A DNA stretch of 64,000 nucleotides from an uncultured Chloroflexia bacterium (GCA_963698765.1 CAVOSB010000037.1:90993-154992), one strand, 5' to 3'. Counted from the first letter of the stretch, positions 39,566 to 63,413 are shown. Program-made: numbers and translations. Notes: generated by a model not told the origin, from the sequence alone.

Positions 39566-41114
39566 GTGATGAGAGTGTACTCGGTTGAGCCACGTTTTCT
39601 CTCGATTAGGCAGGCGATGAGGATGGGTTCCACTCTGAAAATATCTGCTGTAGACCGAATCAGAAATCCACTACTGTCGATTGCGGTATTTTTACTTGCA
39701 TTCCTGTCCTCCTGTTCTGAAACGAAATCCATCATAGTCACACAAGATTGGCAAACCATTTCTCCGGTACTCAGGGAGATGTACGATCACCTGGGGGGAA
39801 GTGAGGTCCTTGGACCAGCTATCTCATTACCTACAGAAGAAGATGGAAGGACCAGCCAATACACTCGAGCAGCGAAACTGGAATTTGATCAAACCCGACC
39901 GGTAAACACAAGATTTCGTCTGCTGCCGATCGGAGTGGAATTGGGATATGTTGAATTTCCAAAACCGCCATTCGATTTCCACAATGAAAGTCTGTGCAGC
40001 GCGCACCAGGTTGCACCCATGTTTCTGGCGATGTATGAGAAACTTGGAAAGGAATTCATCGGCTGTCCGATCTCCGAATTACGCTTCAATCCATCACGAA
40101 ATCGGTTCGAGCAGTACTTTGAAAACCTGGGTTTGTACCGACTGAAGGGTACTGATTCGGTCCATACACTCGATTGGGGTTGGATTGCATGTGGTGACCC
40201 TTGTCTTAACTCTCCCTTGAAAAAGGATACAGTTTACAGCATTGCAAATCCAGGATATGTGGATCTGCAGTACCACCTGCATCCAGTCTTCAAGGAATTT
40301 GCCAATCGCCTTGGAACCGACCTGACAGGGTTTCCTTTAAGCGATCCGCATATAAACAAGGATGGCCGTTTTGACCAGGTAATGGAAAAGGGTCGTACTT
40401 TCGGCTACCTCGCCTAATTCACCAGAGACTGTGACTTTACGCTCGCTTTCGAAAGAATTCCATATACCTGTCGCCAATCCGAGACCTTTCAGACAAGCGC
40501 CTGGATTTTATTTATATAAAACCTTTAACGAATTAGGGTATGAGATCCCGGAAGAAGTCTGGGTGTATATTCTCGATCATGGGGGGGTCGAAGTGATTGG
40601 AGCACCGATCACTCACCTTACAGTAGAAGAAGATCAATTATTTTCGCAGTGTTTCGTGAACCTGTGTCTTTACTACGACCTGACTGAGACTGGGATGCCG
40701 CGGGTCTATCCGATGTCATTGGGATATATCTACAATTCCTTCGTCACCCCCCCAAAGAATCCTGCACCTGGAGATTTACTCGAAACCCCTGAAACTAAAG
40801 AGCGTCTCACTCTAAATGTGTGGGCGAGTATGCCGTCAGTAAAAACTAATCAACAACAAGAAATTGGAGTCATAGCATCCAGGAATGGAAATCCAGAAGC
40901 AGGTGTTACACCGATTTTGATAATTTTCATGCCAGATGGCCGTCATCTCAAAATTTCTATGTCTCCAACTGGAGACGACGGCCGGACTGGTGTGCGCTTG
41001 CCGACTTTAGACGCGGCTAGTGGAAGCATAATAAATTACGAAATTTGTGTTGAAACCGAATTAAATAAATTGTACTGTAATGGCAACAGTTTCGTTATAT
41101 GGGATAATCCTTAG
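39566..41114 (+). pseudogene. predicted lipoprotein with LGFP-like repeats, probable frame break near 40390
   Basis: The signal and lipobox are LLSIAVFLLAFLSSC. Units recur of the form (V/F)(L/I)G.P(I/L)S......Q.FE.. : VLGPAISLPTEEDGRTSQY, FIGCPISELRFNPSRNRFEQYFENLGLY, LTGFPLSDPHINKDGRFDQVMEKG, VIGAPITHLTVEEDQLFSQCFVNLCLY. Shifting frame after MEKG reads VVLSATSPNSPETVTLRSLSKEFHIPV, directly into ORF 40431-41114. Confidence 0.5.
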
Positions 41115-42279
41115 GATTGAGTACATCCGTCGGTAAATGGGGGAGATCGATACTCGCTTCATCACAAAACAAACAAGCATGTTCGATGGCATTTCTCAAT
41201 TCGCGGATGTTGCCTTTCCAATTATAGGATTTCAGAGCATCCATTGCTCGCGGAGTAATGTCAACGATATTCTTACCGTCCCTTGGAGCAATCTGGTTAA
41301 TGAATAATGCCACTAATTGAGGAATGTCCTGTTTTCGTTCTCTTAATGGCGGAATATGTAAATGAACCACTTTCAGCCTGTAATAAAGATCTTCTCGAAA
41401 AAGATTTTCTTCCACCATCTTCTCTAAATTGCGATTAGAGGCTGTAATAACCTGGACATCGACACGGATCATATTCGTGCCGCCCAGTCTTCGAAATGCT
41501 CTTTCTTCTAAGGCTCGCAGCAGTTTTGGCTGCATATCGAGCGGCATGGTTGAGATCTCGTCGAGAAAAAGGATGCCACCATCGGCCACTTCCATCAGGC
41601 CATATTTCCGTTTTTCTGCCGTGGTGAAGGCGCCTGCTTCGTGACCAAACAGTTCAGATTCGAGTAATGTTGTTTGAATTGCTCCGCAGTTAATCGGCAT
41701 AAATGGTTTCCCAGCCCTGGGACCGCGATGCCGGATGGCATCTACCAAAACTTCCTTGCCAGTGCCGCTTTCACCGGTGATGAGGATTGTTGCACCCACA
41801 TCCGCCGCTCTTTTCGCAATCTCGACCATCCTCTTCATCTGGGGATGCGAGCCGACTACGAAATTCGAGTTTTCCCAATTTGCCTGGCGTAGCAGCATAA
41901 GCTCGCGACGCATAGTAAATATTTCTACTGCGCGGCAAACAGCCTCTTCCAGTCGGTCGAGTTTGACAGGTTTCTGTAAAAAATCAGTCGCGCCATCTTT
42001 CATTGCCTTCACGGCCATATCAATGTCACCATTGCCGGTAATCACAATGACCGGTGGACGCATATCATACTTTGTTGTCTCTTCAAGCAAATCGGGACCA
42101 TAACCATCTGGCAGCAGGACATCCAAAAGGATAACATCGGCATTCCCTTGCTGGATATTGCGGCGGGCGTCGGCGAGAGTGGCAGCTCCGATCGTTTCGT
42201 AACCATTGGAGGACAGGAAAGTCCGAATATTTTCGCGAAACTTGTCTTCATCATCCACAATCAAAATCGTCGCACTCAT
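41095..42279 (-). CDS. sigma-54-dependent activator: receiver + AAA+ domain, no DNA-binding domain
   Basis: The receiver is ILIVDDEDKF...VILLDVLLPDG. The AAA+ core has GESGTGKE, FGHEAGAFTTAEKR (a GAFTGA variant), ILFLDEI and RELRNAIEH. The ORF ends about 25 aa after the last AAA+ helix, where a convergent gene begins. Confidence 0.85.
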   Translation of the reverse strand: MSATILIVDDEDKFRENIRTFLSSNGYETIGAATLADARRNIQQGNADVILLDVLLPDGYGPDLLEETTKYDMRPPVIVITGNGDIDMAVKAMKDGATDFLQKPVKLDRLEEAVCRAVEIFTMRRELMLLRQANWENSNFVVGSHPQMKRMVEIAKRAADVGATILITGESGTGKEVLVDAIRHRGPRAGKPFMPINCGAIQTTLLESELFGHEAGAFTTAEKRKYGLMEVADGGILFLDEISTMPLDMQPKLLRALEERAFRRLGGTNMIRVDVQVITASNRNLEKMVEENLFREDLYYRLKVVHLHIPPLRERKQDIPQLVALFINQIAPRDGKNIVDITPRAMDALKSYNWKGNIRELRNAIEHACLFCDEASIDLPHLPTDVLNPKDYPI

Positions 42280-44265
42280 CGTTCTTTATCCTTCTCCTTG
42301 CACGCCGGAAATTGTACATAAAAAACAGTTCCAGGCGTGTAGAATTCAACCTTGATATTGCCTTTGTGTGCAGATACCATCCCTTTTATGATTGCCAGCC
42401 CCAAACCCGTGCCATTCTTCTTTGTTGTGTAAAAAGGTTGAAAGATGTGCTCACGGAATTCTGGCGGGATCCCTGGAGCGGTATCTGCAACAGCTACCTG
42501 GACAAATGTCCTTCCCTCTGGAGTAATTACTGGTTGTACTCGCAAGACCAACCTGCCTCCCGCATCTCCCATCGCCTCTAATGCATTGCTGATTAAATTC
42601 CCAAAAACCTCTTCCAGGGCATATTGATTCCCCTCGATTTTGGGGCATTCAGGAGGCAAAATTACCTCACATTGTACTTTTGCACGCATGATGCGTGCCC
42701 GGTATCTATCCAGGATACGGTTAAGAAGCTGCGGTACTTCCAGAACCACCATTTCGTATTTTTTGGGTTTGGCGATTTCCAGAACAGCTGAAACCTGTGA
42801 GGATAGTCGATCGCATTCCTCAAGCATTTGTCCAATATACTTGCGATGAGTTCTCATTTTCGACTACCTGCCGGTCCATCAGCTGTAATGTAGTACTGAT
42901 GTTGTTGATCATATTACGCATTTCGTGCGCGAACATGGCAGTGACCTCGCCAAGCGTAGCACGCTGTTCATACTGTTGAGCCCGGTTTCGAATTTCTTCC
43001 TGCTCGGTTAAATCCTGTATCAGGATCACGATTGCTTTGAGCAAATTGTCTACCACCACTGGGACGATCCTGGTTGTTGCCAGAAACTTATCACCGTTTC
43101 TTCTGTACAGGTGGATATTATCCGGAATAGAAGGTGCAACCAAATTTGTCATTGATCCCAGATAGGATGAAAAATTTTGGTCCCCAATCAAGATGCTATC
43201 GAGAAATTGGTTTCTTGCCTCCCAACCTTGATATCCTAATATAATTTCAGCAGAACTGTTCAATTCCAGTATTTTGTGGTCTGGATCGATAATAATTACA
43301 GCCTCGCTGATCGAGCTGGTTATATGTTGGAAAATGGTGTTACTGAATTCCTGTTCAGATAGGTTTATGAATAATTCCATCCGTTTTGAATAAATTTGAA
43401 TAAGCGCAGTTATTCCGGAGCCGATGACCCGAGTTGTCTCCAACAGGTAATCAACGGGATTTCTCTTTAAATCGCCGATCACTAAAATACCAATCGTCGC
43501 ATTCTTTTCGCCCAACATGTGTGAAGCAAGATAATTAAGACCCGCTCCGCGAGCTGTGCGATGCAGATAGGTAACCGGTCGGCTCTTGGCAATCCATAGA
43601 TCGGTGTTATTTAAGCCTTCAAGCTCGATATCTTTCAATTGTTCAGGAAGTAAATTCAAATCCCCATGCTCAATAACCTTTTTAAAAACTGGCTCTCCTT
43701 CTTGTGCCAAATATATCGCCAGGATATTTGCTTCTGTCAGATTGGAGCCAACTTCCAGGGTTGCTTTGAGTGCTGATTCTATATCCGGGGATTTTGCTGC
43801 CCTGGTGATTTCACAGAATCCATCAAATGTTTTGGGGATAATATTTTGAGTTTCCGGCGGGAGGACCGTCTCTGGTTCCAGGAAGAAAAGTATTTGCCGG
43901 CTGTTTTCTCGAACTGCCTTTACTTTCACATAGATGCTGTGATTGTTTCTATCCTTTGTTGCCAATTCTATGTGATAGAAATTACTCTTCCAAAGCTGGT
44001 CATATTGCTCTGAGCTGGAGACGAGCTCAATGAACTCTGAATTCCAGTTGTTGAAAAGAGAAAATAATTCCAGCTGGATTAATTCTTCAATCGATATATC
44101 TGTGATTTGTGCGGCAGCAGGATTTGCGTTCTGGATTTTCCATGAATCCGATTCTACGAGCAAGACCGGAATTGGAAGAGATTCGATTGAAACATGGGTC
44201 GTTGAATTATCCGCGAGTTTTTTTCTTCGGAAGCTGTGAATTGTCACTTGCGAAGGATCGCTCAT
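42276..44265 (-). pseudogene. PAS/GAF sensor histidine kinase (NtrB-like), frame break near 42850
   Basis: ORF 42820-44265 holds PAS/GAF regions and the H-box (AMFAHEMRNMINN). ORF 42276-42857 holds the HATPase (LISNALEAM, DTAPGIP, GTGLGLAI). There is an ATGA overlap with the activator gene at 42276-42279. Confidence 0.8.
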
Positions 44266-44298: not shown

Positions 44299-45767
44299 CT
44301 AAACAGGTTGGATGTATTGATCGAATTTAGGAGCATCTATTGGCATCGTGCTACGTCTGGATTTCTTTTTCCTAGAACTCCTGAGACGACCGGGTAGTAT
44401 GCCTTCCAGCGATCGATATTTTGCCACCGTACGGCGTGCAACATGGTAGCCTCGGGCGCCTAATCTTATGACGATTTCTGCGTCGCTGAGCGGATGTTCT
44501 TCGCTTTTAATGATCTCTTGCATAATAGTTCGAACATTCAGGCTGCGCTCGAACATCCTTGACATAGGAATGATGCGTTGATCTGGTAATTGTACCGCTT
44601 TATTAGACACAGCCCTCGATATCGTGGATTCATGCAGTTCAAGCTCTTTTGCCAGCTGAGCTCTGGTCATAGGAATTAATTTTGCTTCGCCCTCCAAAAT
44701 AAATTGACGCTGGTAAAAGACGAGTTTTTCAACCAGACGGACAATGGTGTGATTGCGCTGTTGAAGACACTTGACCAGGAGATTCGCGCGCTCATAATCC
44801 TCCCGCCATTCATCGGTTTTTTCCTCCGGAGCTTGATGCAGAGCTTCTTTGAACAGTGGATTGACCCTCAAACAACCGCTGTATGGGGAGACTATCTCCA
44901 CCACAAGCTGAGTCTCTTGTGTGTCTTTGGATGCAGATATGATGATGTCTGCGTGCTGGTAGACTGGCGGAGTGGGGGTTTTTTGATTATTCTCACCCCA
45001 ATGGGCGCGTGCTGGAAAGGGATTGAGGTTCTGAATAATGAAGTCGGATAACTCCTGTGCTTCATCAGATGATATACCTAGAAAGCGCCCAAGTAGCTCT
45101 GGAGACTTGCGAGTGAGAATATTAAATCCTTCCTGAACAGCCTTATAACAAAGTCCTGGTACCGGACGTAATTCGGCCAGAACTTCCAATTGAACCAACA
45201 TGGCTGATTGAGGTGTCTGAGAGCCAACTCCGATCGGATCTGATCGCTGCACACTTCTCAATACCTCTTCGACGCACGAGATTGGAACATGGTGGTACAG
45301 GGCAATTTCGTGGAGAGGTACACGCAGCAGGCCATCGTCATCCAGGCTCGTCAGGATAAAAGCAGCGATAGGTCGATCACCCGGATCCAGCTCAGGTGCG
45401 ATTTGACGGAAGACATATGTTGGAAGGTTCTGGACTTCAGCGATCCATTCATCTTGTGCGTCATTTCTTTCCAAGTCATAATTTCTTGAAGAGGAAAAGT
45501 CACTTGTGGGGGAAATAAAGATGATGGGTTCTGATTGAGAATGTTTAATCGGGAAGAACATACCGGACACGCGCCGGATGCGATCTGTGGACGGTGGCAG
45601 CGCGGACAACGGCGGACATCAATAAGCTCCAATGCTGGGTTTGATGCTAAGTCTGCCTCAATCTTTTGCTTTAATTCACCACTTGTGAGCTCCAATAATG
45701 ACATTGTTTGAGCAAGATGGGCAGTCGGTTGCTGGCGAAGGAGTGGGGATTGTCTTTGTTGCAGCAT
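44299..45767 (-). pseudogene. rpoN: RNA polymerase sigma-54 factor with a CxxC..CxxC insert, frame break near 45550
   Basis: Region I is MLQQRQSPLLRQQPTAHLAQTMSLLELTSGELKQKIEADLASNPALE (ORF 45351-45854). The core-binding and C-terminal regions lie in ORF 44299-45609 (HTH: TRAQLAKELELHESTISRAV; RpoN box: ARRTVAKYR). Confidence 0.85.
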
Positions 45768-45934
45768 GGGGACACCTCTTTCTATTATAACCCGTTGCAA
45801 GAAATGTACCAAATGAAGTGCTATTACGCAACAAATGTGCCATTTGTCGATCAATATTATGACTTTTGCGATTTTCTTTCAGCGTTCCACAGTGTTAAAA
45901 TATCCAAAATCAATCCATAGTACAGAGGATCAAA

Positions 45935-47038: not shown

Positions 47039-47515
47039 GTGAAAAAGGTAAATCGCCAACCTCTTGTATCAATTCTAATTATAGTTCTCGGAGCAGTCAT
47101 TATCTTAGCGTCATATTTTTGGTTTCAGAGCGCCTCGAATCAGGGTAGGGCTGAACCAGCGGCCTCAGTGGAACAGGTTGCAGAAATTCCGTACCCAGAT
47201 ATTAAGCGAGTTGGTCTGGCTGACGCAAAAGCTGCCTACGATTTGGGCACAGCTGTCTTTATTGATGTCAGAGATGAATACTCATTCCAGCAAGGCCATA
47301 TCCCAAATGCACGATTAGTCCCAGTCGATAGGATTCTACAAGAGAGTGATCAACTGGACTCTTCTCAGTGGTATATCCTGTACTGTACCTGACCGGCTGA
47401 AGAATCAAGCGCCCGTGCGGCGCAAATATTGAAGGATAATGGCTTCAGCAACGTGACGCCAATTCTGGGTGGATTGGCAGCCTGGCGAGATGCCGGGTAT
47501 CCGATTGATCAATAA
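47039..47515 (+). CDS. membrane-anchored rhodanese-domain sulfurtransferase with in-frame TGA (47390-47392) at the predicted catalytic position
   Basis: The track ORF ends ...WYILYCT at the TGA. The same frame continues PAEESSARAAQILKDNGFSNVTPILGGLAAWRDAGYPIDQ to TAA at 47513-47515. That is the canonical rhodanese C-terminal half, and the upstream part has IDVRDEYSFQQGHIPNA. Confidence 0.7.
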
Positions 47516-47518
47516 CAA

Positions 47519-48016
47519 ATGTCAGCAATGGAAAGTAAGTCTGAGCGGCTATCCAGGCGGTTGATCGAGGAAGGTGAAAAAACCGGAGAATTTTTCCGTT
47601 TCCTGCCACTTGATTTTTTGGATATGGAGTTGTACACAGATGGAGGTCACTGGAAAGTCGGACAGATCATGGCTCACTTCCTGGCCACGGAAATTGGGAT
47701 TTTTGCATTAATTACATCAATTTTGGATGGAAATCCAGGAACTCCTGAGGATTTTGAACTCAACCGCTATAATGAGAAAAAAGTCACCGAATTTTGTGAC
47801 CTGCCATTGTCAGTTTTACTCGATGGTTTTATTGAACAGCGGCTAAGAAATGCTCTGGCAGTTAAAGTTTTCACCGATGAGCAACTGCAAACCCAAGGAA
47901 GGCATCCTTATCTCGGTTTTACACGAATTGAAGAGATCATAAAGCTTTTATATCGCCATAACCAGATCCATCAACGCGATATCCGCCGCTTGCTGCTCGA
48001 ATTTCAGTTTTCTTAA
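47519..48016 (+). CDS. DinB-superfamily protein
   Basis: 165-aa helical protein with spaced His residues (HWKVGQIMAHF...HNQIHQRD). The assignment is by general resemblance only. Confidence 0.5.
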   Translation: MSAMESKSERLSRRLIEEGEKTGEFFRFLPLDFLDMELYTDGGHWKVGQIMAHFLATEIGIFALITSILDGNPGTPEDFELNRYNEKKVTEFCDLPLSVLLDGFIEQRLRNALAVKVFTDEQLQTQGRHPYLGFTRIEEIIKLLYRHNQIHQRDIRRLLLEFQFS

Positions 48017-59147: not shown

Positions 59148-59224
59148 GATCGAATTATACTGGATGGGATGACGATTAGAAACGAATAGCAGCAGATATC
59201 GGGAAATCCGAACAAAAAAGATGG

Positions 59225-59299
59225 AGTCAACGAAGGGAATCAAACCTTTGACCCGCCGCTTACGAAGCGGCTGCTCTGCCGTGCTGAGCTACAGCTGGC
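59225..59299 (-). tRNA. tRNA-Thr(CGU)-like sequence with imperfect acceptor stem (degenerate copy or error-affected gene)
   Basis: Its reverse complement matches the tRNA at 63341-63413 from the D-stem through the anticodon arm (GCCGC-TTCGTAA-GCGGC) and the T-arm. However, the acceptor halves (GCCAGCTG / CGTTGAC) do not pair cleanly, showing one mismatch and one extra base. One T-stem pair is also A-C. Confidence 0.5.
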
Positions 59300-63300: not shown

Positions 63301-63340
63301 CCGCCATAGGTAGGGGAAGGGAGTCGAAAAACGCTGAAAG

Positions 63341-63413
63341 AGCCACCGAAGGGAATCGAACCCTTGACCCGCCGCTTACGAAGCGGCTGCTCTGCCGGCT
63401 GAGCTACGGTGGC
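63341..63413 (-). tRNA. tRNA-Thr (anticodon CGT)
   Basis: The reverse complement GCCACCG-TA-GCTC-AGCCGGCA-GAGC-A-GCCGC-TTCGTAA-GCGGC-GGGTC-AAGGG-TTCGATT-CCCTT-CGGTGGC-T folds as a perfect 73-nt cloverleaf. Confidence 0.9.

Follow-up and report, generated by a model that had tools for sequence, protein, structure and literature searches.

The 64,000-nucleotide stretch of DNA analyzed here (hereafter the window; GCA_963698765.1 CAVOSB010000037.1:90993-154992) comes from an uncultured Chloroflexia bacterium and contains a rhodanese gene with an in-frame TGA that very probably encodes selenocysteine (Sec). The coding sequence (47039-47515, + strand) comprises 158 codons, from a GTG start through the predicted Sec codon at position 118 to the true stop TAA at 47513-47515. 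Translation of this interval shows that the TGA (47390-47392, + strand) interrupts the frame after ...WYILYCT and that 40 sense codons, PAEESSARAAQILKDNGFSNVTPILGGLAAWRDAGYPIDQ, then follow up to the TAA, in agreement with an earlier reading of the DNA (the sequence-only reading), which had placed the TGA and the 40 further rhodanese codons at these positions. With Cys set at codon 118, the read-through product matches the Pfam family Rhodanese (PF00581; E = 2.6e-14) over residues 62-151, and the rhodanese domain therefore spans the UGA. The AlphaFold2 model of the read-through protein, which was run with X at residue 118, has a rhodanese fold with a mean predicted local distance difference test (pLDDT) score of 91.8, rising to 96-98 across residues 111-158, and its best Foldseek matches are rhodaneses (6mxv, 3tp9, 3gk5, BH2092, Alr3790, YgaP, and GlpE, with E values down to 2.5e-10). 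The start region and the length of the gene are common to its orthologues.

Ahead of the rhodanese domain is an N-terminal transmembrane anchor (residues 9-33; 47063-47137, + strand), which AlphaFold2 models as a helix over residues 9-33 and whose hydrophobic stretch is conserved in the orthologues. Because K2, K3, and R6 precede the anchor, the N-terminus would lie inside and the rhodanese domain outside the cytoplasm, and the domain is thus probably extracytoplasmic. In several relatives the anchor is replaced by lipoprotein-like signal peptides, for example AIAACNS in L028 and GLACTNN in L031.

Each of the 33 orthologous loci (L001-L033), which represent 22 distinct sequences with 43-100% protein identity and were drawn from independent Logan, ENA, JGI, and GTDB assemblies, has TGA at the corresponding codon. 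These loci are from metagenome-assembled genomes (MAGs) of Anaerolineales, Anaerolineaceae, Leptolinea, Villigracilis, or "Chloroflexia" (31 of 33, Chloroflexota) and from Pyrinomonadaceae of the Acidobacteriota (L030 and L031). The orthologue alignment at this codon, which the sequence-only reading had proposed, thus returns TGA in 33 of 33 orthologues, with Cys in other homologues. Public gene calls give a different picture of the family. A protein search yielded 16 relatives, 14 of which (54-100% identical) terminate exactly at ...YCT, while two (P0012 and P0013) read W, and the DNA behind P0012 (loci L001 and L002) has TGA at the W position, the gene having been called under code 4. Likewise, 17 fetched matches from a representative library holding one protein per 50% identity cluster are shortened at the UGA site, 16 of them at ...YCT and one at ...ITY. 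Trp occupies the Sec position in entries P0012, P0013, P0026, P0093, P0128, and P0167, with DNA confirmation (TGA) for P0012 only; such entries are full-length but carry the wrong residue at 118, and the remaining family entries examined stop at codon 117.

The sequence beyond the UGA is the better conserved part of the domain. Eight orthologues agree at 24 of the 40 positions that follow the UGA but at 20 of the 65 domain positions that precede it, and synonymous codons are free to vary downstream of the UGA (0.4-0.8 per codon), so this conservation acts at the protein level. An exhaustive representative search shows that full-length relatives read Y-C-[ST/D]-C-P-x-E (e.g., P0133, VLYCTCPAEESSAGAA, and P0140, VTYCSCPAEESSARAA), in agreement with the motif Y-C-x-C-P-x-E that the sequence-only reading had given for related rhodaneses. 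Fifteen of the cluster representatives retrieved from the 50% identity library have C-x-C, and the equivalent of codon 118 is TGC or TGT in all 24 Cys-form loci that were examined (L088, L089, and 22 from a metagenome scan built on an eight-sequence alignment). The Cys-form rhodaneses, which are uncharacterized (e.g., P0133, P0138, P0140, and P0113), resemble the window protein in having a rhodanese domain and an N-terminal signal or anchor, with 29-40% identity and the loop CTCPAEESSA in place of CTUPAEESSA, but they differ in having TGC or TGT for TGA. Position 118 is occupied by Ser, Tyr, or Gln in a few further relatives (P0024, P0027, P0120, P0137, and P0147), all of which keep the first Cys of the motif.

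The other element that we associate with the TGA is a hairpin of the selenocysteine insertion sequence (SECIS) type at 47409-47423 (+ strand), consisting of a 5′ arm GCGCC (47409-47413), a loop CGUGC (47414-47418), and a 3′ arm GGCGC (47419-47423). The hairpin lies within the coding sequence, covering the S-A-R-A-A codons (AGC GCC CGT GCG GCG) and the first base of the next codon, and it folds as described in the sequence-only reading, with a free energy of -9.4 kcal/mol, and is conserved in orthologues. In an RNA alignment of the 22 distinct orthologous TGA segments, extending from the UGA to +60, the five-pair helix of this hairpin is the sole consensus structure found by RNAalifold. Pairing is maintained in 97.3% of the hairpin cells, a value equaled by only 1 of 500 column shuffles, and slid controls pair in 19-58%. 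Compensatory C:G to U:A double changes have arisen independently at two different pairs, in L025 and in L027, and G:C has changed to G:U at two further pairs. The five hairpin codons scarcely vary at synonymous sites, with a pairwise diversity of 0.056 where 42 other conserved codons average 0.58; the code offers six choices for Ser, six for Arg, and four for Ala. The G+C content of the stem is 87%, compared with 47.6% for the window. The Pyrinomonadaceae have a variant of the hairpin with the loop GGUCU, which we take to be an fdhF-type loop sequence.

The distribution of the hairpin follows that of the TGA. Of the 22 distinct Sec forms, 17 have the complete five-pair stem and none has fewer than four pairs, while among the 24 Cys-form loci the homologous 15-mer forms all five pairs in one (L089) and 1-4 pairs in the others. 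By these comparisons, the hairpin travels with the UGA. The codon before the UGA is nearly always ACC (synonymous diversity 0.1) and the next base is C in 22 of 22 sequences (window 47387-47393), so that the recoding signal may include, in addition to the hairpin, a conserved ACC-UGA-C context. No second copy of the hairpin was found in the window, the two 3-mismatch matches being at chance level, and Rfam gave no match up to E = 10 on 47330-47530.

Like the consensus bacterial SECIS (the bSECISearch model and E. coli fdhF), the window element is a hairpin within the coding sequence just past the UGA with a small apical loop containing G-U. Published limits for bacterial SECIS elements are an apical loop of 3-9 nucleotides (nt), an upper stem of 4-16 base pairs (bp), a UGA-to-loop distance of 16-37 nt, and a free energy of -7.5 kcal/mol or lower (PMC13188914). 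With a 5-nt loop (CGUGC), a 5-bp stem, a UGA-to-loop distance of 21 nt, and -9.4 kcal/mol, the hairpin falls within all of them, and the SECIS-compatible spacing that had been claimed for the G/U loop is thereby borne out. Loop positions 2 and 3 are G and then U, as in the bacterial SECIS model (PMC13188914). Counted from the final base of the UGA, the loop G lies at +23, and a structural study places the conserved loop G of SECIS elements about 20 nt beyond the UGA (PMC4605307). The sequence-only reading had described a two-part fold in which an outer stem encloses this hairpin. The inner part is conserved and covaries, but the outer stem, GCUGAAG (47396-47402) with CUUCAGC (47443-47449), folds in the window sequence and is not conserved, as 59% of its cells are paired across the 22 orthologues and 90 of 500 shuffles do as well, and we rejected it as part of the element.

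We consider it highly probable, from these sequence comparisons, that the TGA truly encodes Sec, that the conserved hairpin is its SECIS element, of minimal size, and that the gene product is a membrane-anchored rhodanese carrying C-x-U. The claim made in the sequence-only reading, namely that the TGA is a Sec codon and neither a nonsense mutation nor a base error, is thus supported by the conserved TGA, the coding conservation downstream, the Cys homologues, and the covarying hairpin. Mechanistically, UGA118 would not be read as a stop. Instead, the compact hairpin 16 nt past the UGA, with its 5-bp G+C stem and its C-G-U-G-C loop, would act as a bacterial SECIS and recruit SelB-GTP with Sec-tRNA(Sec) to the ribosome, the dependence on SelB being a prediction, leading to the insertion of Sec. 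The 40 codons past the UGA would then be translated to give the second half of the rhodanese fold. Sec118 and Cys116 would form a selenol/thiol redox or persulfide-carrier pair, located on the external side of the membrane and cycling via a Se-S bond.

Several observations weigh against this proposal. ARAGORN detected tRNA-Sec neither in the 64-kb window nor in the 29 orthologous loci searched, and the E. coli SelA, SelB, and SelD proteins (from NC_000913) gave no tblastn match (E ≤1e-3) in the window and 85 fetched loci, so that the machinery is supported from the literature only, at the level of the class or lineage. The single-sequence fold is no better than that of dinucleotide shuffles (z = +0.2 to +0.3) and is thus uninformative, and the significance of the hairpin comes only from the comparison of orthologues and applies to the inner hairpin alone. 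Since the S-A-R-A-A peptide is itself conserved, part of the nucleotide conservation of the hairpin is protein-derived, and three of the 22 sequences lack an intact closing pair. With 5 bp, the stem falls short of the 6-8 bp given as typical (PMC4605307), and, unlike the consensus bacterial SECIS, the window element is minimal, with neither a lower stem nor a bulged U. One Cys form, L089:1001-1546 (Logan ERR15087786), which has TGC in ...YCSCPAEHTSARAASEL, keeps the hairpin as GCGCC-CGUGC-GGCGU where the other 23 do not, and the hairpin is hence not strictly exclusive to UGA. The L089 hairpin may be the relic of a SECIS that stayed behind when Cys recently replaced Sec, and we regard it as a minor caveat. 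Lastly, the best NCBIfam match of the protein, NF041203, scores 60.6 bits (with Cys at 118), which is below the curated cut-off of 115.

The alternative that survives best, an improbable one in our view, is that the UGA is recoded to a standard amino acid, either Trp or Cys via a near-cognate tRNA or Cys carried on tRNA-Sec, with the hairpin doing no more than causing a pause or promoting read-through; the lineages concerned might lack a functional selenium metabolism. The Sec machinery not found in the window or the fetched loci would fit such a scheme, as would the Cys form that keeps the hairpin and the C that follows the UGA in all 22 distinct sequences, UGA-C being a weak termination context. 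It accords poorly with a hairpin that agrees with bacterial SECIS elements in four respects, including the loop G-U and the spacing, and with homologues that have Cys at the UGA position, which is the classic Sec/Cys pattern. Moreover, the closest family among the curated ones comprises selenoproteins that also have CxU, and the retention of UGA in proteins that are 43-100% identical is hard to explain if TGG or TGC gave the same product. Selenoproteins of Chloroflexi and Acidobacteria were counted as early as 2006. Anaerolinea thermophila UNI-1 is recorded as SelD+, SelA+, and SelB+ with four selenoproteins, and Caldilinea and several Acidobacteria are also positive for Sec machinery (Peng 2016 Tables S1 and S2), which again speaks against insertion of a standard amino acid.

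That the 117-residue product is the mature protein, and that the downstream frame and the hairpin represent a separate peptide, terminator, or attenuator before the DinB_2 gene that follows, seems to us very unlikely even though nearly all public gene calls stop at codon 117. A stop at this codon would cut inside the active-site loop and remove the last helix-strand-helix of the rhodanese fold, the region that is confidently modeled in the read-through protein (pLDDT 96-98 at residues 111-158), and the peptide so discarded is the best conserved part of the domain. The first in-frame start after the TGA is a TTG at codon 131, and the hairpin has no trailing U-tract and is 90 nt ahead of the real stop.

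We give still less credence to a genuine nonsense mutation, which would make the gene a pseudogene, or to a TGC/TGT to TGA base-calling error in a long-read contig, which were the alternatives offered in the sequence-only reading. The contig does contain assembly errors, as its comparison with an independent assembly (L084; 99.65% identical) gives 18 substitutions and two single-base indels, but the TGA is common to both, and the frame disruptions of the window are single-base indels, which is the distinction between the TGA and the other disruptions that had been drawn at the outset. The TGA is, furthermore, present in all 33 loci from independent assemblies, to which can be added a short independent Logan contig (L085) that has 100% identity with the window across 480 nt containing the TGA, and the frame downstream of the TGA is under purifying selection. 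The faintest of the alternatives is a genome-wide reassignment of TGA to sense (code 4 or code 25), which some Logan gene calls imply by reading W here (the six Trp-bearing entries listed above) but which is contradicted by TGA closing 14 of the 32 window open reading frames (ORFs) of at least 250 codons, indicating that TGA is not reassigned in the source genome, and by neighboring genes in orthologous contigs that table 11 calls normally.

Returning to the Sec-containing protein, the position of the predicted Sec within the active site can be considered in more detail. The sequence-only reading had put the TGA on the catalytic Cys of the rhodanese, as indeed does a gapless alignment to GlpE. 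While the assignment to the active-site loop holds, the exact catalytic position is doubtful, as the canonical catalytic Cys aligns instead with Cys116 both in MAFFT and in HMMER profile alignments to solved rhodaneses, with a two-residue insertion needed after the Cys. The secondary structure in the AlphaFold2 model consists of a strand (residues 111-115), a six-residue loop (116-121, C-T-U-P-A-E), and a helix from residue 122. Based on these alignments and on the strand and helix limits in the model, Sec is most likely the third residue of the active-site loop, in a C-x-U motif (C116-T117-U118) with Cys116 at the canonical site. Cys116 (TGT, 47384-47386, + strand), the first residue of the loop and the partner of the predicted Sec, is invariant among the Cys forms; of the 22 distinct Sec forms, 21 also have it and only L025 departs, with TGA. 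The loop is acidic (P-A-E-E), unlike that of thiosulfate-binding rhodaneses, and selenol/thiol redox or persulfide-carrier chemistry of the C-T-U pair is the most likely function of the motif.

In L025:10292-10300 (MAG MFD02979.bin.1.144) the sequence reads TAC TGA ACT TGA, with TGA at both 116 and 118, which could be a U-T-U double-Sec variant or a long-read substitution error. MAG MFD03804.bin.2.42 is the source of L026, L032, and L033, three gene copies on three contigs, two of them with scrambled upstream frames, and these may represent collapsed or duplicated long-read contigs rather than true paralogues.

As to known rhodanese families, reviews list several predicted rhodanese selenoprotein families (PMC13188914; PMC9312934), one of which has a CxU motif and is termed "form 3" or "COG0607 form 2," with the model NF041203 and the exemplar TKB26178.1. 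Hence the statement in the sequence-only reading that rhodanese-type selenoproteins are a reported bacterial family is correct. Among NCBIfam models, the window protein matches NF041203 (rhodanese_LYCAU, "rhodanese-related (seleno)protein") best, aligned over positions 19-124 of the 126 of the model, and the score falls from 60.6 to 53.7 bits with X at residue 118. This 7-bit gain from Cys suggests that the Cys/Sec column of the model aligns with residue 118. An orthologue from L001 (70.3 bits) and the Cys relatives score 54-86 bits, and as these scores are below the 115-bit cut-off the window clade is outside NCBI's NF041203 equivalog. Each has a single rhodanese domain in which one Sec, within a C-x-U, lies at the end of the L/T-Y-C strand (LYCTU here and LYCAU in the model), and both are known from prediction only. 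The window clade, which is set apart from NF041203 by score, has an N-terminal membrane anchor or lipoprotein-like signal peptides. By the classification rule of the review, which asks for the same domain and the same Sec motif (PMC9312934), the PF00581/COG0607 domain and the single predicted Sec in C-x-U are those of the form 3 rhodanese-like selenoproteins. The window protein is therefore of the CxU rhodanese family by the review rule and a neighboring clade by the NCBI equivalog threshold.

The more familiar rhodaneses are less closely related. E. coli GlpE and PspE have the rhodanese fold with Cys at the first loop position (Foldseek match to GlpE 1gmx, E = 2.5e-6, TM-score 0.58, the remaining top matches being rhodaneses of single-domain or fused type), and PspE is extracytoplasmic, as the window protein probably is, but the window protein does not reach the NCBIfam equivalog cut-off of either (47 bits vs. 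102 for GlpE and 22.6 bits vs. 102 for PspE). It differs from them in its acidic loop, C-T-U-P-A-E-E rather than the C-Y-H-G-N-S type, in having Sec as the second redox residue, and in the two-residue insertion that the sequence alignments require between the Cys and the next helix. TsoB (NF045694, rhodanese/DsbD fusion-like, UxxxxU) is likewise a cell-envelope rhodanese selenoprotein but is matched weakly (29.9 bits vs. a cut-off of 805) and differs in its 572-position model with a DsbD-like part and in its two Sec residues.

Current knowledge is not overturned by these results, since CxU rhodanese selenoproteins are already listed as predicted families; what is added is a new and systematically mis-annotated member or sister clade of such a family. 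The public gene calls examined for the clade are all wrong, being either cut at codon 117 or given Trp under code 4, and as a consequence a clade of selenoproteins in the Anaerolineales is hidden from protein databases and selenoproteome counts, in a phylum that is common in sludge, sediments, and soils. The 15-nt hairpin together with its natural compensatory variants offers a compact system for the requirements of SelB outside the Proteobacteria and Firmicutes, and a C-x-U motif on a rhodanese that is probably outward-facing raises the question of whether such a protein is a redox enzyme rather than a sulfur carrier. A bolder view, which we put forward only tentatively and think rather doubtful, is that of a distinct and widespread clade, in the Anaerolineales and some Pyrinomonadaceae, of exported membrane- or lipid-anchored rhodanese selenoproteins outside NF041203, in which Sec would be the second member of a Cys-x-Sec pair and not the canonical catalytic residue, the 15-nt SECIS would be among the smallest natural ones, and one MAG (L025) may have U-x-U. 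If true, the rhodanese fold would work as an extracytoplasmic selenol/thiol oxidoreductase or persulfide reductase and not as a plain sulfurtransferase, and a 15-nt hairpin would also fix the S-A-R-A-A peptide.

Immediately downstream of the rhodanese gene is a gene of the DinB_2 family (47519-48016, + strand; taken from the ORF list and identified by Pfam DinB_2 on syntenic orthologues), which starts 3 nt past the rhodanese stop and is probably co-transcribed with it. The closest clade preserves the gene order rpoN, proline dehydrogenase, rhodanese, DinB_2, UbiA, MoeA, MoeA-PBP, AhpC/TSA, and cytochrome c. We considered DinB_2, UbiA, and MoeA as conserved functional partners and rejected them, as the association is confined to the closest clade and distant orthologues have unrelated neighbors, and for this reason no function is drawn from the gene context. 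An Anaerolineaceae clade without the DinB_2, UbiA, and MoeA neighbors has, about 2.8 kb downstream of the rhodanese and after oxidoreductase-like genes of the flavin adenine dinucleotide/iron-sulfur (FAD/Fe-S) type, a gene for a membrane protein that by eye is DsbD/CcdA-like with an N-terminal CDEC motif (L015:13138-14370 and L021:13177-14379). This protein could supply electrons to an exported thiol/selenol protein.

Elsewhere in the window, comparison with L084 shows an extra T at 42851, which splits a PAS/HisKA histidine kinase (42276-44265), and a missing base at 45544, which splits the sigma-54 gene rpoN (44299-45854), and both indels are probably long-read assembly errors. Another indel probably accounts for the adjacent + strand ORFs at 39566-40417 and 40431-41114 (window 39566-41114), which are in different frames and have a combined length close to that of a single 496-residue protein without a Pfam domain (L003:2586-4076) that adjoins a sigma-54 activator gene in orthologous contigs. 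At the gathering threshold, the only Rfam matches in the whole window are two tRNA-Thr genes. Both have the anticodon CGU and are on the - strand, 4 kb apart (59222-59299 and 63340-63413). The former is 78 nt long with its anticodon at position 36 and an Rfam score of 35.7 bits, compared with 67.1 for the latter, and it may be an indel-damaged or divergent copy.

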